The notes under the pieces: generated by a model
The model's input: the letters and a program-made list of their open reading frames with translations, nothing else
What the model was told of the DNA's origin: nothing
The model's database searches: none
Shown: in pieces, positions 10,920 through 20,473 of the stretch
How positions within the stretch are numbered: the stretch's first letter is position 1
How the letters are laid out: every line of letters starts with the position of its first letter
Assembly: GCA_036275915.1 (NCBI GenBank)
Contig: DASUCV010000015.1
Span: 12,394 to 76,393 of the forward strand
Reading direction: 5' to 3'
Length of the DNA stretch: 64,000 nucleotides
From: Candidatus Polarisedimenticolaceae bacterium
GTDB lineage: Bacteria; Acidobacteriota; Polarisedimenticolia; Polarisedimenticolales; DASRJG01
Position numbers and translations under genes: made by a program

Positions 10920-13900
10920 CTACGGCGCGCACGTCAGATTCGCCGCCGGCTGCGGCGCGCCTTGCGAGTTGTAGCCGCTCGCGCTTTCCTGGCAGAGATC
11001 GTAGCTCGTCACCAGGTAGTACGACGATCCGGCGGCGGGCGTGATCTGGACGGAGCGGCGGCCGGCCGAAGCGGGGGGCGTCTGCTGGCACGCCTTCGCG
11101 CCGTGCGAGTACCACGCGCCGAGCGACCCTTCGTAGACGTTGTAGCCGCCCACCTGGCCGCCGAGGTCCTGGAACGAGATCGAGAGATCGCTCCCCACCT
11201 TGTCGACGCTGAGCGGTGACGCCGAGGCGGACGACGAGACCTCGGGCGGCGCGGCGCTCGACGTGGGCGGGAGCGCATAGGTGATCGTGAGCACGGGGCC
11301 GAACTGCTTCAGCTCGTCCTCGCTCGCCCGGAACTTCGTCTCCTGCTGAGCACCGGCCGCGAGCTGGAGCGCGTAGCCGTAGTCGTTCGCGGGATGGGCG
11401 AGCCAGAAGCGGAACGCATCGAGGACACCGGCGCCGCCGAGGACCGCCGGACTCACGATCGAGCCCATCGTGACGACGGCGTCCGGATCGAACGCGGTGT
11501 CGCGCGCGCCGAAGTAGTCGGCCGTCGACGTTCCGTTGACGCCGGCGGCGCGCGCGGCGGCGTTCGGCTGGTTCCACGCCTTCACGTTGAACTCGCTGTC
11601 GCGGTACGTCGCGCCGCCGTGCCCGTTCGTCGGGTTCACCGGGTTCTGCGTTTGATCGGGGCCGCCGTAGTCCCACCAGCGCTGGAGCACGCGCCGCGCC
11701 TCGACCGTCTGCGCATCGCCCCAGAACGGCGCCAGCGCGACGCTCGCGGCGGTCAGGCTCGATGGATTCGAGACTCCGGTCGCAGCGAAGGCGTTCTCCC
11801 ATTCGAAGCGGACGAAGTCGGTGTTCCTCTGCGTGCCGCCGTTGTTCGAGCGGAGCCAGACGGAGCCGTTCGCGCCGGCGACGCTGCCGTACACCGTTCC
11901 GGAGTCGTGCACGGGGACGGTGAAGTTCTCGTACCCTGACGCGCCGAAGGTCACGGTGAGCGTGTCGCCGACGACGAATGTCTTCGCGTTCTGCGGATCG
12001 CTGACGTCGAGGAGGTTCGCGACCCCGCCGCTCGCGCGGTCGGCGACATCGGCGATCGGCCCCAGCGGAACGAGCTGATAGGTCGCGGGGCCGCAGTCGT
12101 GATGCAGGCCGGCGACGGTGAACGTGATGCGATCGCCGTTCTGCGGGTCGAGGACCGCGCCGGTGATCGCGACGTCGGCGCCGCCGACCGCGTGCAGGCG
12201 CCACGCGGCCGGGCTCGCGGCGGCGGCATTCACGCTCTCGCTGAGCCACGCGTCGACGCGTGTCAACGACGCCGGCTCGACTCGCACGACGCGCGGCGGC
12301 GCCGTGTCCAGGGCGGCTCTCGCCTCGGCGGCGGTCGTCGTCCCGTCGATCGAGGCGACGAACTCCGCGAGATCGACGAGCTGGCGGTTCGTGAGCCCGC
12401 CGGGCGTTCCATGAGGCTGCGTGCGCCCCGGCGTGCGGAAATCGATCATCGCCTCGAGGAGCGTCTCGGCGTCCTTGGGCTTCGCGACCCCGACGTACGG
12501 CGGCGAATCGAAGGCGCCGAGAAGCGACGGCGTGTTGACGCCCCACAGCGGCGCCCGCGTGTTCAGCTCCGCCTCTCCGGCGTCATGCCGCTGCCCGACG
12601 TCGTGGAACGTGAAGTCGGTCCATCCGGTCTCGGGGACGTGGCAGGTGGCGCACTTGCCGTCGGCCGGCTTCCCGCCATTCCCCATGAAGAAGGTCGCGC
12701 CGCGGATCGCCGCCTCGGAGAGCGTGCCGTCGGGGTTGCGGTGCGGGCTGTGCGCGAGCGCCGGGAGGTTCAGGCAATAGGTCGCGAGGTCGTCGAGGTC
12801 GGCGCTCCGCCCGGCGTTCGGCGGCCCGAGCGGCGGCTGGAGCTGGGCCGCGGGGATGTAGCCGGTTCCTCCCATCTGGATGCCGCGGAAGGTGTGGTCG
12901 AAGTCCTGGACCTCGTCGCGATCGCCCGAGCGGTGGAGCTGGCCGAGGCCGGTCGCCGGGTCGATCCCGCCGAACGACGCGCCGAGGCCGAGGATCGACT
13001 GCGTCTGCCGAGGCCCGTGCGCGCCCGGCAGGAACTGGAGATCCCACTGACGGCCATCCTCTTCTCCGTAGATGTGGCACGAGCCGCACGCCACCTTGCG
13101 ATTCGACGACGCGCGCGGATCGACGGCCCCGTGGAACACGCGCTCGCCGTTCAGGAACGATGCCGAGAGCGGCTCGGGGGTCCCCGGCGTCACCGCGATC
13201 CGCTTCAGCTCGACAGGCGACGACCAGGTCGTGACGTCGACCTTCGAGACGTCGCGCGAGAGGAGGTTCGCGACGTAGGCGATCTGCTTGCCGCCGATCG
13301 CGACCGGAGCCAGCGCAATGCCGGTCGGGCGGCGGCCGACGCCGACGGCGACCGGATGCGGTGCGACGCCGTCGTCGTACGCCGGCGTCGTCGCCGGCAT
13401 GACGAGGAGGTTCTCGCTCAGCTCGCCCACCATGAAGACGGTGGCACCGTCACCGGTGAACGCGAGATCGGCGGGGCCCGAGACCGGCATGTTCCAGCCG
13501 GGGCCGATCCACGCGGAGGTCGCCGGGTCGTGGACCTGCATCGCCGTCACGATGACCTTGTCGGTGATCGTGTTCGGGATGCGCCGCGTCGTGAGGTCGA
13601 TCTGCCGGAAGACCGCCTGGATGATCGAGTCGGGCGTGATCACGGTCTGGTTGCGGTTCGAGTACTGCGTCGCGACCCAGACCCTCGTCGTCCCCGGCCG
13701 CTGCGCCAACCCGCCGCGGAAGTTGAGGTAACCGCCCTCGGCGACGTTGTGCGCGGGGATGGGATCGTGGAGCGAGGCGTTGTCTTGCGGCCCCGCGCCG
13801 TCGGTGCGCTCCTCGGTCGTCACGCGCGGCGTGCCGCCCGAGACGTCGATCCGGCTCACGCGCGGAAGGCGATCCATGACGTGGAGGTGCGTCACCCACG

Positions 13901-14420
13901 CCGAGACGCCGTCCTCCAGCCATGCGATCCCGAGCGGCGTGCGGAAGGTGTCGAGCCGTGCCGTCACCGTGCGCGTCGCGCGGTCGATCACCGCCACCTG
14001 CGCGCCGCGGAGGAGCGTGACGAGCGCCTTCGACTGGTCGCGCGAGAGCGCGACACCGTACGGGCCGCTCCCCCACGGAAGATCGATGCGCGCGAGGACG
14101 GCGCCGGCGCCGCTCAGGACGTAGACGCGGTCCGAGTCGTGGCAGGCGACCCAGACCTCGCTGCCGTCCTCGGCGACCGAGAGGCCGTGCGGCGCGTGGC
14201 GCACCGGCGGACCGACGGGCGGCTGCGGCAACGGGAACTCGACGACCGCATCGGTCGCCGTGTCGATGCGCGAGATGGAATCGTGATCGGGGTTGACGAC
14301 CCAGACCTTCGAGCCGTCGGCGGTGATCTGGATCGGCCCGCTCTTGAACGAGCGCGCGCCCGCCGCCGAGGCGGTATCGAGTGCCAGGAGAAGGAGCGCC
14401 GCCGCGCACAACGGACGCAT
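10920..14420 (-). CDS. Secreted multidomain protein: beta-propeller repeats + di-haem cytochrome c peroxidase-like domain + Ig-like/DNRLRE-like region + C-terminal 'YYLV' module (1166 aa)
   Basis: Start chosen at ATG 14420 (MRPLCAAALLLLALDTASAAG signal peptide). YVTN-like propeller repeats are present, with two CxxCH haem motifs (CGSCH, CATCH). The upstream part of track ORF 10920..15266 is a frame extension overlapping the next gene. Confidence 0.85.
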   Translation of the reverse strand: MRPLCAAALLLLALDTASAAGARSFKSGPIQITADGSKVWVVNPDHDSISRIDTATDAVVEFPLPQPPVGPPVRHAPHGLSVAEDGSEVWVACHDSDRVYVLSGAGAVLARIDLPWGSGPYGVALSRDQSKALVTLLRGAQVAVIDRATRTVTARLDTFRTPLGIAWLEDGVSAWVTHLHVMDRLPRVSRIDVSGGTPRVTTEERTDGAGPQDNASLHDPIPAHNVAEGGYLNFRGGLAQRPGTTRVWVATQYSNRNQTVITPDSIIQAVFRQIDLTTRRIPNTITDKVIVTAMQVHDPATSAWIGPGWNMPVSGPADLAFTGDGATVFMVGELSENLLVMPATTPAYDDGVAPHPVAVGVGRRPTGIALAPVAIGGKQIAYVANLLSRDVSKVDVTTWSSPVELKRIAVTPGTPEPLSASFLNGERVFHGAVDPRASSNRKVACGSCHIYGEEDGRQWDLQFLPGAHGPRQTQSILGLGASFGGIDPATGLGQLHRSGDRDEVQDFDHTFRGIQMGGTGYIPAAQLQPPLGPPNAGRSADLDDLATYCLNLPALAHSPHRNPDGTLSEAAIRGATFFMGNGGKPADGKCATCHVPETGWTDFTFHDVGQRHDAGEAELNTRAPLWGVNTPSLLGAFDSPPYVGVAKPKDAETLLEAMIDFRTPGRTQPHGTPGGLTNRQLVDLAEFVASIDGTTTAAEARAALDTAPPRVVRVEPASLTRVDAWLSESVNAAAASPAAWRLHAVGGADVAITGAVLDPQNGDRITFTVAGLHHDCGPATYQLVPLGPIADVADRASGGVANLLDVSDPQNAKTFVVGDTLTVTFGASGYENFTVPVHDSGTVYGSVAGANGSVWLRSNNGGTQRNTDFVRFEWENAFAATGVSNPSSLTAASVALAPFWGDAQTVEARRVLQRWWDYGGPDQTQNPVNPTNGHGGATYRDSEFNVKAWNQPNAAARAAGVNGTSTADYFGARDTAFDPDAVVTMGSIVSPAVLGGAGVLDAFRFWLAHPANDYGYALQLAAGAQQETKFRASEDELKQFGPVLTITYALPPTSSAAPPEVSSSASASPLSVDKVGSDLSISFQDLGGQVGGYNVYEGSLGAWYSHGAKACQQTPPASAGRRSVQITPAAGSSYYLVTSYDLCQESASGYNSQGAPQPAANLTCAP

Positions 14421-14501
14421 GACGTCCGTGAAGCTACGGGGATCGGCCTGGTTTGTCGAGCGTGGGTGGATTACGCTTCGCGCCATCGCACGGAGGGAGC
14501 C

Positions 14502-16796
14502 GTGATCCGGTGCTTGGTCGGGGCCCTGGCGCTCGCGTCGTCGTGCGCCGCCTTGCAGTCGGCCCGAGCCGTCGAGCCGCCGGCGACGGTGGCGCCTTCG
14601 CTCACGTCGCTCTTGAACGAGTGCGCGGATCCGCAACTGGGCGCCGAGGCGATCCCGATTCGAGGGGCGACGATCGCCGTCGGCAATTTCGAGATGTCGT
14701 TGACCGATGGCTGGCTCGTCCCGGTGATGGGAGGGAGCCGCGTCTTGGGCGCGTACTTCGAAGGCCACGGGCGGTACCTCTACGACGTCCGAGAGCCCGC
14801 CGATCAAGAGGCGCTCGCGCTGAACCTCGCGCGGATGACGAACAGCCTCCGCGTCACGGCAAGCAAGGTCGGCGACGAGCTCACGAGGGCGCTCGTTCTC
14901 ACGAGCGATCCGAGCCTTCTCGGCCTCGACGCCGGACAGGGCGGCGATCATTCGTGGCCGCGATCGATGGACGACGGATTCCGGACCATGCTGACCCGGG
15001 CGCGCGCGACCGCGACGAGCTCCGGTGAGTTCGATTTCCGTCTCGCCTCGGCGCTCCTCAACGGCGGCCGCCGGTGGACGTACGTCGAGCTCTCCGGCGG
15101 CCGCCTCCCGGTGGGCTACGTCTACGACGACGCTCTCGAAGGGTTGGAGCGGCTCCTCGGTTTCCGCAAGCTCGTCCGCTACGACGTGCGCTTCGCTCAG
15201 ACGCTGAGCGAGCACGGACTGCCGGGCTGGGATGCGGGGCGCCGGCTGAACGTGGTGTTGCGCCACGCCGACATCTCCCTCGTCACGATCGACAACCGAT
15301 CGGCGACAATCGACAGCGACGTCACCCTGCGCATCCCCGAGGCGAGGACGCGCGTGATCGACATGATGCTCATGAACAACCGCGACCCGGACTCAGCGAA
15401 CTGGAGCTCGACGCGCCAGCAGCTCCGGGTGATGCACGTCCGCGACGCCGACGGCCGCGACCTCCCGTTCTCGCACAAGTATCACGAATTGATCGTCGAG
15501 ATTCCGACAACCTCCACAGCGGATTCCGAGCTGCACCTGCGGTTCGAGACCGAAGGCGAGATCCTGCTCGATGCCGCCGGACGGCACACCGACGACTACT
15601 TTTCCATCTTGAACTACCCCTGGTACCCGAGTCCCGGCAGCCCTGCGGGTCAGCAGTTCACGTACACGCTCAAGGTCAAGGTCAAGAAGCCGTGGGAGCC
15701 CGTGACCTCCGGACGGGAAGTCGCCCGCATGGACGACGGGACGTTCGTCACGGTGCAGTCGCGGTCCGATCAACCTTCGATGCTGGTCGGCGTGATGGCG
15801 GGAAAATTCTTCAGCAGCAGCGTCACGACCGGGCGCACCACGGTGCGCGTTCACTCGTACGCGTGGGACCGCAAGGACGTGCTCGAGAAGCTGCCGAAGC
15901 TGGCCGGCGCCATGCTGGACCTCTATACGAAGCTTCTTGGACCGTTGCAGTCGGACGAGATCGACATCGTCGAGTACCCGGGCCGGGTGCCACGGCCCGC
16001 GGCGGGGCTGGTCGTCATCGACCCGATGGCGTTCTCGAATGTCCATACCTCGGCCGCGAGCGGGGTGAACGCCCGCCTCGCCCGCGCGCTCGCGTTCCAG
16101 TGGTTCTCGCAGAAGGCGATGCCGATGAACCCCGAGGATCTCTGGCTCGCCAACTCCTTCGCCGATTACTACGCGGGCCTCGCGCTGAGCGCGCTCGACG
16201 TCCACCACGCCGGCACCGTCTACGGCTTCGACGACCTGCTGACCGCCTGGCGCGTCGAGGCGAAGACCTGCGCCGATAGCGGCACCATCGCGACTGCCTT
16301 TTACCTCGGCGGCGAGGACGGCGCGCGAGACCGGGCGTGCTTGCTCGACAGCCGTGGGCCGCTCGTCCTCCACATGCTGCGGACGATGATCGGGAACCAG
16401 AAGTTCTTCGACGCCACACGCAAGTACCTGGATGCGGCGAACTACGGGCCAGGGACGACGGATGGATTCACCGACGCTCTCTCGAGGGTCGCCGGCGAGG
16501 ACATGCGCTGGTACGTCGACCAGTGGGTCCGGCGCCGCGGCGACGCCCAGGTCACGTTCGAGCACCACGTCGACACCGGGCCGCACGGCTACCGCCTGTG
16601 GGGAACGATCCGGCAAGCGCCGGGCGCCGGCTTCAAGAAACTCCTCCTCCCCGTGGTCTGGAACGACGGCGGCAGCGAGGTCGGTAACGTCGTCCTCGTC
16701 GACGAGCCGGAGGAAAAGTTCGAGTTCACCCTAGGGGCGAAGCCGGCCTCGGTCCAGCCGGATCCCCACCATACGAACTTGGCGGTCTACAAGTGA
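14502..16796 (+). CDS. M1-aminopeptidase-like protein, predicted catalytically inactive paralog (764 aa)
   Basis: GTG at 14502 sits 5 nt after GGAGG. It has a signal peptide and is collinear with the downstream M1 peptidase. However, HEIAH is replaced by RALAF (16083-16097), and the distal Zn-ligand Glu is replaced by Asn (WLANSF). Confidence 0.85.
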   Translation: MIRCLVGALALASSCAALQSARAVEPPATVAPSLTSLLNECADPQLGAEAIPIRGATIAVGNFEMSLTDGWLVPVMGGSRVLGAYFEGHGRYLYDVREPADQEALALNLARMTNSLRVTASKVGDELTRALVLTSDPSLLGLDAGQGGDHSWPRSMDDGFRTMLTRARATATSSGEFDFRLASALLNGGRRWTYVELSGGRLPVGYVYDDALEGLERLLGFRKLVRYDVRFAQTLSEHGLPGWDAGRRLNVVLRHADISLVTIDNRSATIDSDVTLRIPEARTRVIDMMLMNNRDPDSANWSSTRQQLRVMHVRDADGRDLPFSHKYHELIVEIPTTSTADSELHLRFETEGEILLDAAGRHTDDYFSILNYPWYPSPGSPAGQQFTYTLKVKVKKPWEPVTSGREVARMDDGTFVTVQSRSDQPSMLVGVMAGKFFSSSVTTGRTTVRVHSYAWDRKDVLEKLPKLAGAMLDLYTKLLGPLQSDEIDIVEYPGRVPRPAAGLVVIDPMAFSNVHTSAASGVNARLARALAFQWFSQKAMPMNPEDLWLANSFADYYAGLALSALDVHHAGTVYGFDDLLTAWRVEAKTCADSGTIATAFYLGGEDGARDRACLLDSRGPLVLHMLRTMIGNQKFFDATRKYLDAANYGPGTTDGFTDALSRVAGEDMRWYVDQWVRRRGDAQVTFEHHVDTGPHGYRLWGTIRQAPGAGFKKLLLPVVWNDGGSEVGNVVLVDEPEEKFEFTLGAKPASVQPDPHHTNLAVYK

Positions 16797-16845
16797 TCGC
16801 GTCGCCCGGTTGCGCTACGCTTCCGGCCATCTTGGGGGGATCGTC

Positions 16846-19146
16846 ATGAGCCGTCGAGGCCGCCTCGCGCTCGTCGTGGGACTCATCGCTCTGGCCTCGG
16901 CCCCTTGCGCGGCCCTCGACGTCAAGCCCGCGCCGGACACCTCTCTGGCCGCCGCGCTCGAGGAGACGGGCACGATGGCCCTCGCGTCGGACGGGGTGAC
17001 GATCAAGAACGAGCGCGTCGATTTCGGGCACATGGAGATCTCGTTCGCCGAAGGGACGCTCGTGCCGGTGCTCGGAAAGTCGGGCGCCACGCTCGGCGTG
17101 TACTTCGAGGGGCGGGGTGGTTACCTCTACACGACGACCGACGTCGCCGATCGCGCCGCCCTCTCGGTCAACGCCGCGCGGGTTGCGAAGTCGATCCGCA
17201 CGATGCAGGGACGCGTCACCGACGACTTCAAGTCGGCGCTCATCCTGTTCAGCGAGCCCCAATTCACCGATCTCTATGCCGACGCGTCGCTGCCCCACGC
17301 GAGCGCATCGGCGATGTCCGGGAGCTTCCAGACGATGCTCGCCGGCGCTCTGAGCACCTACGGAGACTTCGGTTTCTTCACCGCGACCGCACGCCTGAAC
17401 GGCCACGGGCGCTTCGTCTATGCCGAGCTTTCGGGCGGGCTCGAGCGCGTCGGATACGCCTTCGACGACGTCCACAACGGGCGAGAGCGCTTCTTCAACT
17501 TCAGGAAGCTCGCCGATTACAACGTGCGCTTCTCCGAGACGCTGAGCTACCAGTCGATTCCCGGATGGACGGCGGAGCGCCGCAAGACGATCGCGATGAC
17601 GCGGGCGGAGGTCGCCGTCGACACGCCGGACAACCGGTCGGGGACGATCGACAGCGATCTCACCTTCCACGTGCACGACGCCGGCACGCGCGTCCTGCCG
17701 CTCTTGCTCCTCAACAATCGCGACCCCGACTCAGCGGACTGGAGCTCCCCCAAGAACAAGCTGACCGTGAAGCGCGTCGTCGACGCGAACGGTCGCGAGC
17801 TGCCGTTCTCGCACCGGTACGGGATACTCCTCGTCGAGATCCCGCCGACCGCCGCCGCAGATGCCGACGTCAAGATCCGAGTCGAGACCTCGGGCGAGGT
17901 CTTCGTCGACATGAAGGGACATCACGGCGACAACTACTTCAGCCTGAACTATGAGGACTGGTACCCGAGGCCGGTGTCCTGGTCGGCGCGGAGCTTCACC
18001 TTCGCCGTGAAGGTGCGCTGCAAGAAGCCGTGGAGCCCCGTGACTTCGGGGAAGCAGACGTCGAGCCGCGAGGATGGAGATTTCGTCACGGCGGAGGCGC
18101 GCTCGGACGTCAGGGTCGATACGATCGCGGTCTTCGGCGGTAAGTACGTCACGCGCGGCGAAACGGTCGACGGCGTCCTGATCAACATCCACGCGTACGC
18201 CATGGCCCGCAAGAACGTCCTCGACAACATGCCGAAGCTGGCCGGGAGTATCGCGAAGTTCTACGCGTCGCTCCTGGGGCCGATGCCGGTCGACGAGCTC
18301 GACATCGTCGAGGTCCCGGAGTACGGATTCGGGATCTCTCCCCCGGGACTGATCCTGATGACGACCGAGGCGTACAAGCCCCACGAGGAAGAGGCCAACT
18401 ACTTCGTCGAGGGCGTCAACGCGCGCCTGGCGCACGAGATCGCGCACCAGTGGTTCGCGCACAAGGCCGCTCTCGCCGGCCCCGACGACAACTGGCTCTC
18501 CGAGTCGTTCGCCGAGTATTTCGCGGGCCTCGCGATGGGGGCCATGAACGGCGACGACAAGAACGTGTTCGGATTCAACAAGATGATCGCGAACTGGAAG
18601 GGCCAAGACAAGTACTGCACCGACGGCGCCCCGATCGCCGCGGCCGACTACCTGGGCGGAGAGGACGGTGACAAGGATCGCACCTGCCTCCTCTACGCGC
18701 GCGGGCCGCTCGTCCTCCACATGCTCCGGACGTCGATCGGCAACGACCGCTTCGCGGCGGCGGCGAAGAAGTACCTCGACACCGCGAACAACGGCCCCGC
18801 GACGACCGACGACTACGCGAAGGCGCTCTCCGACATCATGCAGATGGACATGCGCTGGTACGTCGACCAGTGGGTGCGCCGCAGCGGCAACGCGCAGGTC
18901 GGCATCGAGCAGCATCTCGATGCCGACGGGCCGGGAGGCTACAAGCTGTGGGGCGTGATCCGGCAGGCGCCGGGCGACGGCTTCAAGAAGCTGCTCGTCC
19001 CCTTCGTCTGGGACAACGGCGGCAAGACCGAAGCGCGCGTCGTGTTCGCGGACGAGCCGGAGAAGAAGTTCGAGTTCAAGCTGGCGTCGAAACCCGGGAC
19101 CGTGAAACCGGATCCTTATCAGAACAACCTGGCGGTGTACAAGTGA
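16846..19146 (+). CDS. M1-family zinc metallopeptidase (766 aa), secreted
   Basis: The HEIAHQWF-X18-E gluzincin motif is intact (HEIAH at 18433-18447; WLSESFAEY). Signal peptide MSRRGRLALVVGLIALASAPCAA. The alternative upstream start at 16810 is less likely. Confidence 0.88.
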   Translation: MSRRGRLALVVGLIALASAPCAALDVKPAPDTSLAAALEETGTMALASDGVTIKNERVDFGHMEISFAEGTLVPVLGKSGATLGVYFEGRGGYLYTTTDVADRAALSVNAARVAKSIRTMQGRVTDDFKSALILFSEPQFTDLYADASLPHASASAMSGSFQTMLAGALSTYGDFGFFTATARLNGHGRFVYAELSGGLERVGYAFDDVHNGRERFFNFRKLADYNVRFSETLSYQSIPGWTAERRKTIAMTRAEVAVDTPDNRSGTIDSDLTFHVHDAGTRVLPLLLLNNRDPDSADWSSPKNKLTVKRVVDANGRELPFSHRYGILLVEIPPTAAADADVKIRVETSGEVFVDMKGHHGDNYFSLNYEDWYPRPVSWSARSFTFAVKVRCKKPWSPVTSGKQTSSREDGDFVTAEARSDVRVDTIAVFGGKYVTRGETVDGVLINIHAYAMARKNVLDNMPKLAGSIAKFYASLLGPMPVDELDIVEVPEYGFGISPPGLILMTTEAYKPHEEEANYFVEGVNARLAHEIAHQWFAHKAALAGPDDNWLSESFAEYFAGLAMGAMNGDDKNVFGFNKMIANWKGQDKYCTDGAPIAAADYLGGEDGDKDRTCLLYARGPLVLHMLRTSIGNDRFAAAAKKYLDTANNGPATTDDYAKALSDIMQMDMRWYVDQWVRRSGNAQVGIEQHLDADGPGGYKLWGVIRQAPGDGFKKLLVPFVWDNGGKTEARVVFADEPEKKFEFKLASKPGTVKPDPYQNNLAVYK

Positions 19147-19185: not shown

Positions 19186-20421
19186 ATGAGTCACGACACC
19201 GCACCTCGACGCGTCTTCGTCTCCGGGATCGGCGCGATCACGCCCTACGGGCTGGGTGTCGACGCGCTGAAGGACGGCCTCTACGCGGGGCGTTCGGCGA
19301 TCGGCCCCATCACCGCCTTCGACGCGTCGCGCTTCCAGACGCGGTTCGGCGGCGAGCTGCCGGCGACGCCGCTCGCCGAGCACTTCGACGCGCGCGACCT
19401 GCCGTGGCTCTCGTCGCTTACGGCGCACGGGGTCATCGCGGCGCGTCTCGCGCTCGCGGACGCCGGCATCACGAACGGCGCGATGGGCGGCGCGGGGGTG
19501 ATCTTCGGCTCGGGCTTCGGCACGATCGCGGAGGCGGGCCCACATTTCCTGAAGTGGGCGGAGGTCGGCGACACGGCATCGCGGCCGACGACGATTCCCT
19601 CCCTCATGCTGAACGCCCCCGCGGCGCAGATCGCGATCTACCTGGGGCTCACGGGGCCCTCCCTCATGGTGTCGACCGCATGCAGCTCCGGCAGCCACGC
19701 GATCGGCCAGGCGTACCGCGAGATCCGCGAGGGACGGCGCGAAGCGATGGTCGCCGGGGGCGGCGAACACGCGCTCACCGAGCTCATGCTCCTCTCATGG
19801 TCACGCCTGCGCGTGCTCTCTCGGCGGAACGACGAGCCGGCACGCGCGTGCCGTCCGTTCGATACGGACCGCGACGGCCTCGTGCTCGCCGACGCGGTCG
19901 TCCTCCTCGTGCTGGAATCCGAGGCCTCGCTGGCCGCACGCGGCGGGCGCGCGCTCGCCGAGATCGCGGGGTACGCGAGCAACTGCGACGCGTCGCACCT
20001 CACCGCCCCGAACCAGGCGACCGAGGTGCTCGCGATCCGTGAGGCGCTCGTCGACGCCGGGTCCGAGCCGGGCGACGTCGATCTCGTCGTCGCGCACGGC
20101 ACCGCGACGCGCCTCAACGACCGCACGGAAGGCCACGCGCTCCGCGAGGTGTTCGGCGACAACGGCGCTTTCCCGGTCGTCACCGCGCCGAAATCGATGC
20201 TCGGCCACGCCATGGGCGCGTCGGGCGCGCTCGGCGTCGCCGCCGGGGTCTTCGCGCTGCAATCGGGGAAGGTCACCCCGACGACCAATCTCGACCACCT
20301 GGACCCCGACTGCGGCATCCCCATGCCACCGGCGACCGCGGAAGCGATCGACCCCGAGGTCGCCATCGTCGACGCCTTCGCCTTCGGCGGCCACAACGCC
20401 GTCGTCGTGCTGAAGAAATAA
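19186..20421 (+). CDS. fabF: Beta-ketoacyl-ACP synthase II family enzyme
   Basis: Cys-His-His catalytic triad contexts are present: STACSSGSHAIG, VAHGTATRLND and KSMLGHAMGASG. 411 aa. No other fab genes are adjacent. Confidence 0.9.
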   Translation: MSHDTAPRRVFVSGIGAITPYGLGVDALKDGLYAGRSAIGPITAFDASRFQTRFGGELPATPLAEHFDARDLPWLSSLTAHGVIAARLALADAGITNGAMGGAGVIFGSGFGTIAEAGPHFLKWAEVGDTASRPTTIPSLMLNAPAAQIAIYLGLTGPSLMVSTACSSGSHAIGQAYREIREGRREAMVAGGGEHALTELMLLSWSRLRVLSRRNDEPARACRPFDTDRDGLVLADAVVLLVLESEASLAARGGRALAEIAGYASNCDASHLTAPNQATEVLAIREALVDAGSEPGDVDLVVAHGTATRLNDRTEGHALREVFGDNGAFPVVTAPKSMLGHAMGASGALGVAAGVFALQSGKVTPTTNLDHLDPDCGIPMPPATAEAIDPEVAIVDAFAFGGHNAVVVLKK

Positions 20422-20473
20422 GAGGGGACAGCTTCCGAAACTCGAACTGCAGAGTTTCGGAAGCTGTCCCCTC
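20422..20473. repeat. Perfect 22-bp-stem hairpin (GGGGACA-family palindromic element), probable bidirectional terminator
   Basis: GAGGGGACAGCTTCCGAAACTC (20422-20443), an 8-nt loop, then the exact reverse complement (20452-20473). It lies between convergent genes. Confidence 0.8.

Follow-up and report, generated by a model that had tools for sequence, protein, structure and literature searches.

The tandem M1-like genes and their products

We analyzed two tandem genes for putatively secreted proteins of peptidase family M1 on a contig of a soil-derived Candidatus Polarisedimenticolaceae bacterium (Acidobacteriota; NCBI GenBank assembly GCA_036275915.1, contig DASUCV010000015.1, positions 12,394 to 76,393 of the forward strand). 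This stretch of 64,000 nucleotides with a G+C content of ~68% is referred to as the window, and all coordinates are counted from its first position. The downstream gene (copy 2) encodes a complete catalytic zinc site, the upstream gene (copy 1) has lost all residues of this site, and its product is probably a pseudopeptidase. Family members with an intact catalytic site are termed live and those with a degenerate one dead; loci and proteins of relatives carry designations beginning with L and P, respectively. The genes and the positions of their catalytic elements, located by translation and alignment, are:

14502..16796, + strand: copy 1, 764 aa, GTG start codon 5-12 nt past GGAGGGAG
15981..16007, + strand: degenerate substrate-binding strand at the GAMEN position of copy 1, GRVPRPAAG (live members: GFGISPxG)
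16083..16097, + strand: degenerate HExxH of copy 1, R528-A-L-A-F532 (RALAF)
16143..16166, + strand: degenerate distal zinc-ligand motif of copy 1, WLANSFAD (E551N; second-shell E555D)
16347..16349, + strand: Asp616 of copy 1 in place of the catalytic Tyr (CLLDSRGP vs CLLYxRGP)
16846..19146, + strand: copy 2, 766 aa, ATG start codon
18433-18447, 18493-18516 and 18694-18696, + strand: catalytic set of copy 2, HEIAH, WLSESFAE and Tyr617

An earlier note on this DNA had described two collinear full-length proteins at these positions, and translation together with an end-to-end BLASTP alignment (48% identity, 64% positives, 25 gaps in 774 columns) bore this out. Its wording of a near-identical C-terminal end was too strong, since the measured identity is ~61-63%, and copy 1 terminates in TNLAVYK rather than in the NNLAVYK given for both proteins. 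Both copies score above the Pfam cut-off of 27.7 bits for PF01433 (Peptidase_M1), copy 2 with 64.8 bits and copy 1 with 35.1 bits in a weak match starting at profile position 66; no specific NCBIfam model matched either of them. The signal peptides claimed for both copies were judged by eye only, and a positive N-region, a hydrophobic core and an AxA-like site at both N-termini are consistent with the claim. Low pLDDT values were obtained for residues 1-28 of copy 1 and 1-23 of copy 2 in the AlphaFold2 (AF2) models. A twin-arginine (Tat) signal confined to copy 2, which begins with MSRRGRL, was considered and dropped, because no consistent twin-arginine pattern divides live from dead members across the N-termini of the family.

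The public records of both proteins originate from a metagenome-assembled genome (MAG), where copy 1 is labelled "M1 family aminopeptidase". Two long overlapping open reading frames obtained mechanically in this region (12099-16796, + strand, 1565 aa; 10920-15266, - strand, 1448 aa) are artefacts of the stop-poor DNA at 68% G+C, and the true starts at 14502 (+) and 14420 (-) lie inside them.

Loss of the catalytic site in copy 1

About 68 members of the close family were aligned and the catalytic columns were marked. All live members aligned carry HExxH, WLxESFAE and CLLYxRGP, the tyrosine being invariant in 55/55. The exchanges reported in the earlier note, i.e. HEIAH to RALAF and WLSESF to WLANSF (H528R, E529A, H532F, E551N) with the same spacing of 18 residues between HExxH and the distal residue in both copies, proved to be exact. 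Beyond these, copy 1 has lost the catalytic tyrosine (Y616D; the motif of copy 2 is CLLYARGP), and a second-shell glutamate (E555D), and its GAMEN-aligned loop, which reads GFGISPPG in copy 2, is degenerate. At 67 positions the 55 full-length live members are at least 95% conserved, and 58 of these are kept in copy 1; the nine changed positions comprise all six catalytic and second-shell residues and three of the 61 others, a clustering with a hypergeometric P of 8e-7.

By its PF01433 match and its fold, copy 1 belongs to family M1, but it has neither the arrangement HExxH-18 residues-E nor the catalytic tyrosine, whereas copy 2 has both, and Tyr617 of copy 2 aligns with the tyrosine in GITYAKGA of the solved aminopeptidase 7V9O. 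The essential catalytic residues, whose loss marks a pseudoenzyme, are thus missing in copy 1 (H528R, E529A, H532F, E551N, E555D, Y616D). Judged by these positions, copy 1 cannot be a zinc peptidase, and its public annotation is an error. In the alignment, the glutamate of the exopeptidase motif GAMEN (GxMEN), which binds the amino terminus of the substrate (PMC10343166), is absent from both copies, and the live family members lack the motif as well. Therefore, the motifs do not suffice to call even copy 2 an "aminopeptidase"; it is an M1-like zinc metallopeptidase rather than a demonstrated aminopeptidase.

For the first zinc-binding position, copy 2 has the histidine codon CAC and copy 1 has CGC, i.e. 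a single transition. All four dead members of the close family have arginine at this position, and three of the four have aspartate at the tyrosine position. In total, the exchange of the first histidine for arginine recurs across several separate dead lineages, with P0139, P0204, P0207, P0208, P0003, P0009, P0011 and copy 1. This recurrence may be explained by mutational ease; alternatively, the arginine may structurally fill the empty metal site.

Fold and domain architecture

The AF2 models (copy 1: pLDDT 85.9, pTM 0.86; copy 2: pLDDT 89.6, pTM 0.88) have the same order of secondary-structure elements. In Foldseek searches, both models retrieved the same M1 structures, namely IRAP, ERAP1/2, PSA and factor F3, with E values of ~1e-27 to 1e-28 over ~560 columns. 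According to the models, a signal peptide, an extra N-terminal domain and the M1 domains I-III are predicted to be common to both copies, with the following approximate regions in copy 1:

aa 1-23: signal peptide
aa 30-190: extra N-terminal alpha/beta domain (~160 residues)
aa 191-455: M1 domain I
aa 456-680: thermolysin-like domain
aa 681-764: beta-sandwich domain III

The ARM-like helical domain IV, which is typical of the M1 family without being universal, was found in neither copy: there is no Pfam match to ERAP1_C or Leuk-A4-hydro_C, and the models end in the beta-sandwich at about residue 764.

Relatives and states of the locus

A search of 5.8 billion clusters yielded 26 matches for copy 1 and 57 for copy 2 as query. 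The close family is small, and its named matches all belong to the Acidobacteriota. A metagenome scan with a family-specific N-terminal alignment found 10 loci and no further tandem pair, and a scan of genome contigs with the full-length alignment gave no close relatives among the matches listed. In L003, L085 and the contigs of P0014 and P0002, the gene order is asparagine (Asn) synthase, a single live M1-like gene, a FabF-like beta-ketoacyl synthase (KAS) and, on the opposite strand, a 410-aa OMP-like protein; judged by gene order, this would be the ancestral arrangement. The KAS of the window is 91% identical to those of L086 and L088, 80% to that of L001 and 67% to that of L003, and identities between window and L001 are 81% for a CCP-like neighbor, 80.5% for the Asn synthase and 66% for the OMP-like protein. 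From these flanking genes it follows that L086 and L088 are nearest to the window, followed by L001 and then L003.

Three states of the locus occur among these relatives. Like the window, L088 has a dead and a live gene: its live gene is 88% identical to copy 2 and is preceded at a spacing of 50 nt by the last 82 codons of a family gene, which are 68% identical to the C-terminus of copy 1. L086/L087 are live only; their gene is 87% identical to copy 2 and directly follows the intergenic region found in front of copy 1 in the window. L001/L002, two samples covered to +/-8 kb around the locus, are dead only: between the CCP-like gene and KAS lies P0003, a full-length protein with 54% identity to copy 1 and the motifs RELAL, WLGDSF and CLLWSRGP. 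The earlier note had made its view depend on the presence of copy 1 in related genomes, and P0003 in L001/L002 as well as the C-terminal fragment in L088 provide it. Another ~60 family members are live and encoded by solitary genes, and the dead genes P0003, P0011 and P0207 have no live neighbor within the available DNA (L001/L002, L084, L101).

The two independent assemblies of L086:1-100 and L087:1-103 (JGI 3300006854, ENA ERZ27257700) break at most 3 nt apart from each other, just within the beginning of the CCP-like gene upstream of the live gene. The break in both may reflect strain-level variation at the site where the dead copy is present or absent.

As a background, M1 genes with 20-30% identity were taken from the 80 loci listed. 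Here, 81/81 genes have intact HExxH, E and Y and only 1/80 loci has two genes, although the search patterns were biased toward intact sites.

Selection on copy 1

Ratios of non-synonymous to synonymous substitutions (dN/dS) were calculated by NG86 with bootstrap intervals, a method that is unreliable at saturation and at a G+C content of third codon positions (GC3) of ~0.9. A ratio of 0.40 (0.34-0.47) was obtained for copy 1 vs P0003 and of 0.24 (0.12-0.41) for the C-terminus of copy 1 vs the fragment in L088, compared with 0.18 (0.14-0.24) for copy 2 vs its ortholog in L088. For the dead P0011 (L084) and the live P0007 (L003), which are 64% identical, it is 0.19 without bootstrap. Constraint on copy 1 is thus relaxed about twofold, yet clearly present.

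Copy 1 and P0003 are both full length and collinear at 54% identity, and the flanking genes of the two loci are 66-81% identical. In a neutral simulation to the same protein divergence, the frame stayed open in 0/300 runs, with a mean of 5.8 stops; this conservative simulation used substitutions only and no indels. Copy 1 also retains its start codon, its ribosome-binding site and its signal peptide, and its GC3 of 0.89 is like that of the neighboring genes.

The earlier note had suggested a maintained dead paralog instead of simple decay. This view is supported by the intact syntenic P0003, the dN/dS of 0.40, the absence of open frames in the simulations and the concentration of the losses on the catalytic set. 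It had named frameshifts or relaxed selection in orthologs of copy 1 as signs of a plain pseudogene; P0003 is full length and intact, and the relaxation found is the twofold one given above. Hence, the second mark of a pseudoenzyme, to be kept by selection, is also present, as estimated by NG86 from few orthologs. The gene in L094 (5150-7455 on a 78-kb ENA contig), which is split into ~6 frames, was rejected as an example of a pseudogene, because its neighbors are broken as well and indel errors of the assembly are the likelier cause.

Origin of copy 1

Trees were calculated by neighbor-joining only, with 100 bootstraps. Copy 1 and P0003 were grouped in 100/100 bootstraps inside a clade A, which is marked by a short loop NVH[ST]..ASG before the HExxH helix that is also present in copy 1. 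Copy 2 was grouped with P0028 and P0029 in a clade B with a long loop (KPH.EE...). Since the copies belong to different clades, the duplication must be old. The earlier note had implicitly pictured the upstream copy as a degraded duplicate of the downstream one, which does not agree with this placement: copy 1 and copy 2 were grouped in 0/100 bootstraps and their loop types differ. A recent duplication is also ruled out by the orthologs of copy 2, which are 87-88% identical to it, while copy 1 is just 48% identical. Likewise, a single origin of all dead members of the close family was rejected, as 0/100 bootstraps group all four; P0009 and P0011 were grouped with the live P0006, P0008 and P0031, though long-branch effects are possible in neighbor-joining.

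A sequence of events compatible with these data would begin with an old tandem duplication of the M1-like gene between Asn synthase and KAS, from which clades A and B arose. In support of this duplication, the spacer between copy 1 and copy 2 repeats part of the region upstream of copy 1. Subsequently, the clade-A copy would have become inactive in the ancestor from which the window and L001 lineages derive, while copy 2 stayed active; the exchange of the first zinc ligand H to R is common to copy 1 and P0003. Later, the live copy would have been lost in L001 and the dead copy in L086.

Recurrence in the wider family

When 1.84 billion representatives were searched with a profile, 232 relatives reached E <=1e-30. 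Among ~195 representatives with motif columns, 13 (~7%) have degenerate catalytic sites of varied kinds. In the close family, P0009 and P0011 form a second dead lineage (RGIAY, CLLDSRGP). Among the 13 is P0204 in L100 (ARGLAE, WVPRAF, LVAARGP), which is encoded downstream of an M14 carboxypeptidase gene and followed after ~0.6 kb on its 3' side by a live paralog with HEIAH and 46% identity to it; a small antisense gene lies between the two. P0208, 86-88% identical to P0204, is followed by a live paralog after 88 nt in two independent assemblies (L102/L103). P0204 is just 26% identical to copy 1, which argues for an independent origin of this second arrangement of a dead upstream and a live downstream gene. 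Adjacent co-directional pairs of inactive and active homologs, as known from the peptidase family M16B, are therefore found in the window, L088, L102/L103 and L100; consistent co-occurrence of the partners across relatives, the other feature of the M16B type, was not found at the examined loci. Where two family genes were neighbors in the examined family loci, they were always dead and live and never live and live.

The clusters in L100:948-7183, L102:1-4580 and L103:1-4502 consist of genes for an M14 carboxypeptidase, a dead and a live M1-like protein and represent a subfamily of ~680 aa. Their live genes are only 63-65% identical vs 86-88% for the dead orthologs. The live gene may evolve at a higher rate, or another gene may have taken its place.

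Neighboring genes and expression signals

The following features surround the two genes:

10920..14420, - strand: divergent neighbor, 1166 aa, weak CCP_MauG and cytochrome c matches in Pfam, used as synteny marker
14421..14501, + strand: 81-nt divergent intergenic region upstream of copy 1, with a -10-like box TACGCT (14472-14477) and GGAGGGAG as ribosome-binding site
16797..16845, + strand: 49-nt spacer between copy 1 and copy 2, with TACGCT at 16816-16821 and a G-rich ribosome-binding site
19186..20421, + strand: FabF-like KAS, 39 nt 3' of copy 2 (Pfam, synteny)
20424..20471, no strand assigned: terminator-like hairpin between the convergent KAS and OMP-like genes (20-bp stem with 12 G-C pairs, 8-nt loop)

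The 81-nt region can be aligned with the sequence in front of the only M1-like gene of L086 and of L001, and its proximal part is repeated in the 49-nt spacer, with TACGCT ~30 nt before each start. A TAnnnT box (TACGCT, TAGGCT or TAATCT) ~30 nt before the start and followed by a G-rich ribosome-binding site was found at at least nine family loci, among them the window (both copies), L001, L003, L084, L085, L086, L088, L090 and L091. This box may be a -10 element or a signal of the 5'-untranslated region; a standard scan found no sigma-70 consensus promoter here. There is no terminator-like site between copy 1 and copy 2 and none between copy 2 and KAS. Scans of the 64-kb window for tRNAs and with Rfam were both empty.

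The 49-nt gap without terminator and the hairpin after KAS indicate that copy 1 and copy 2 are probably co-expressed, with the hairpin as the likely 3' end of a unit of copy 1, copy 2 and KAS. Copy 1 would thus probably share an operon with its live paralog, and co-transcription could occur with or without an internal promoter. Probably all three genes are co-expressed, with an own -10-like box for each copy, and both M1-like proteins would be exported. The hairpin has a qualifying T-run on the - strand and could end transcripts from both sides.

KAS adjoins the M1-like gene also in L001, L003, L086, L088, L099 and the contigs of P0002 and P0014. The gene for this cytosolic enzyme is always found 17-40 nt 3' of the gene for the secreted M1-like protein, and the synteny holds down to 67% KAS identity. 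Only the window, L001/L002 and L086/L087 have the CCP-like gene next to the M1-like gene, and the CCP-like product of the window is 81% identical to the counterpart in L001. This CCP-like protein is secreted and has a further weak match to a beta-propeller (lactonase). Its gene lies as an insertion between those for Asn synthase and the M1-like protein and does not occur there in L003 or L085; L003 has a DUF748/AsmA-like gene in its place.

Function of copy 1 and alternative explanations

Taking fold, catalytic losses and selection together, we favor with fair confidence the interpretation that copy 1 is a pseudopeptidase that kept the M1 fold, lost zinc and hydrolysis, has long been under purifying selection and is a facultative companion of copy 2. 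With its M1 scaffold, it would be a binding module devoid of catalysis, located in the periplasm or on the cell surface, and would bind a peptide, a protein or some other ligand. Since some relatives have only the live and others only the dead gene at the locus, such a facultative relationship is favored over that of an obligate subunit. The earlier note had proposed a partner of the live enzyme, such as a substrate receptor, an inhibitor or a heterodimer subunit. These roles are only partly supported: the pair recurs in L088 and independently in L100 and L102/L103, and the spacer is short, but the partners are also found alone, which speaks against obligate pairing.

Several points weigh against the favored interpretation. 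The dN/dS of the dead gene is at least twice that of the live gene, and for the pair P0204/P0208 it is 0.55 (0.40-0.81), a clearly relaxed constraint. The lineage of copy 1 consists of two full-length sequences and one 82-aa fragment, copy 1 and P0003 form long branches in the neighbor-joining trees, and a horizontal origin of copy 1 is possible. Contigs L086, L087 and L088 end near the gene, and the placement of the CCP-like gene next to the live one in L086/L087 is based on ~97 nt. Moreover, the GAMEN-equivalent strand is degenerate in all dead members, so selection may have preserved something other than the ancestral substrate groove.

If copy 1 were a plain pseudogene, its function would be gone and its frame merely still undisrupted, as stops are rare at 68% G+C. 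The very long spurious reading frames in the G+C-rich window, the faster evolution of copy 1 relative to copy 2 with its raised dN/dS, and the absence of copy 1 from the close relative L086/L087 would fit this idea. However, a frame of 764 codons is collinear with all homologs with few gaps, P0003 is intact at a divergence at which no neutral simulation remained open, dN/dS is significantly below 1, and the conserved positions outside the catalytic set, the codon bias, the start codon, the ribosome-binding site and the signal peptide are all kept. A plain pseudogene is therefore largely refuted and very unlikely. Equally improbable is that copy 1 is still an enzyme with a metal-independent chemistry via Arg528, Asp616 and other residues. 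The arginine in all four dead members of the close family, its recurrence in P0139, P0204, P0207 and P0208 and the aspartate in three of the four could be read in this sense, but other positions vary among the dead lineages (A/E/G; F/L/Y; N/D/E), unlike a new catalytic constellation, and the exchange of histidine for arginine requires only one transition (CAC to CGC). To our knowledge, metal-independent chemistry of this kind has no precedent.

More weight has to be given to two further explanations, both of which we still consider unlikely. In one of them, copy 1 is the non-catalytic, substrate-binding subunit of an obligate two-subunit peptidase with copy 2. The tandem arrangement on the same strand, 49 nt apart and without terminator, the recurrence of the pair in L088, the independent pairs of a dead followed by a live gene in L102/L103 (88-nt gap) and L100, and the M16B precedent (PMC11266112) point in this direction; on the other hand, a live ortholog with 87% identity stands alone in L086/L087, the locus of L001/L002 (+/-8 kb) contains the dead ortholog without a live gene, P0011 and P0207 have no live neighbor, and ~60 single live genes argue that the enzyme needs no dead partner. 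The other explanation regards copy 1 as a xenolog, i.e. an already dead clade-A gene that the ancestor shared by the window and L088 received from an L001-like lineage and integrated next to its own clade-B gene, so that the adjacency would be an accident of homologous integration. This would account for the different clades of the copies, for the presence of just one of them at the same locus in all other genomes, and for L086 being as close to the window as L088 and yet without copy 1. Against it, composition and codon usage of copy 1 are like those of its neighbors (GC3 0.89), the 49-nt spacer repeats the proximal upstream region as a tandem duplication would, and the CCP-like gene common to the window, L001 and L086 marks these as relatives, in which differential loss needs only two deletions. 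The xenolog explanation concerns the origin only and leaves the conclusion of a maintained pseudoenzyme unaffected.

Comparison with known systems

Beta-domain I, the thermolysin-like domain II and the beta-sandwich III of the M1 gluzincin aminopeptidases (IRAP, ERAP1/2, PepN, tricorn factor F3) are also present in both copies, and copy 2 likewise has HExxH-18 residues-E and the tyrosine. Unlike these enzymes, both copies are without the GAMEN glutamate and domain IV and have an additional N-terminal domain of ~160 aa and a signal peptide, and copy 1 is without all zinc ligands, the general base and the tyrosine. Reuse of the M1 scaffold without catalysis is not new: TAF2 of TFIID is an M1-derived non-enzyme. 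Yeast Tma108, the sole family-M1 entry in a review of metallopeptidase pseudoenzymes, retains HExxH-18 residues-E (PMC11266112). In both Tma108 and TAF2, the M1 scaffold is reused for binding; they are eukaryotic and intracellular, unlike the secreted bacterial copy 1. M1dr of Deinococcus radiodurans (6A8Z/6IFG) is a two-domain bacterial M1 enzyme that works without the C-terminal helical domain (PMC10343166). In contrast to the copies described here, M1dr is cytosolic, catalytically intact and devoid of domain III and the extra N-terminal domain, and the sequence match to it is weak (E = 2.5e-8) and restricted to the catalytic core.

In the literature searched, we found no bacterial or secreted M1 pseudopeptidase and no pair of dead and live M1 genes. 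Pseudopeptidases as such are already known and are well documented in eukaryotes; the bacterial, secreted M1 setting would be new. The locus offers a natural series at one syntenic position, with dead and live, live only and dead only, and this presence/absence series together with the independent pair makes the function of a dead peptidase directly testable.

The closest functional analogy for the pair is provided by the mitochondrial alpha/beta processing peptidase of family M16B and its bacterial homologs; an active protein and an inactive homolog without zinc ligands are encoded by adjacent genes, which in bacteria form two-gene operons (PMC11266112). The two systems differ in fold and clan (inverzincin HxxEH vs gluzincin HExxH). 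By this analogy, dead paralogs among the secreted M1-like proteins of Acidobacteriota might repeatedly serve as substrate-capturing or regulatory subunits of the downstream live paralog. This would make them an M1 counterpart of M16B with at least two independent origins and the first pseudopeptidase system of family M1 in bacteria; we put this forward as a speculative and rather doubtful generalization. Moreover, the M16B heterodimer is obligate, while the pair described here is known from its genes, and each of its partners also occurs alone in relatives.

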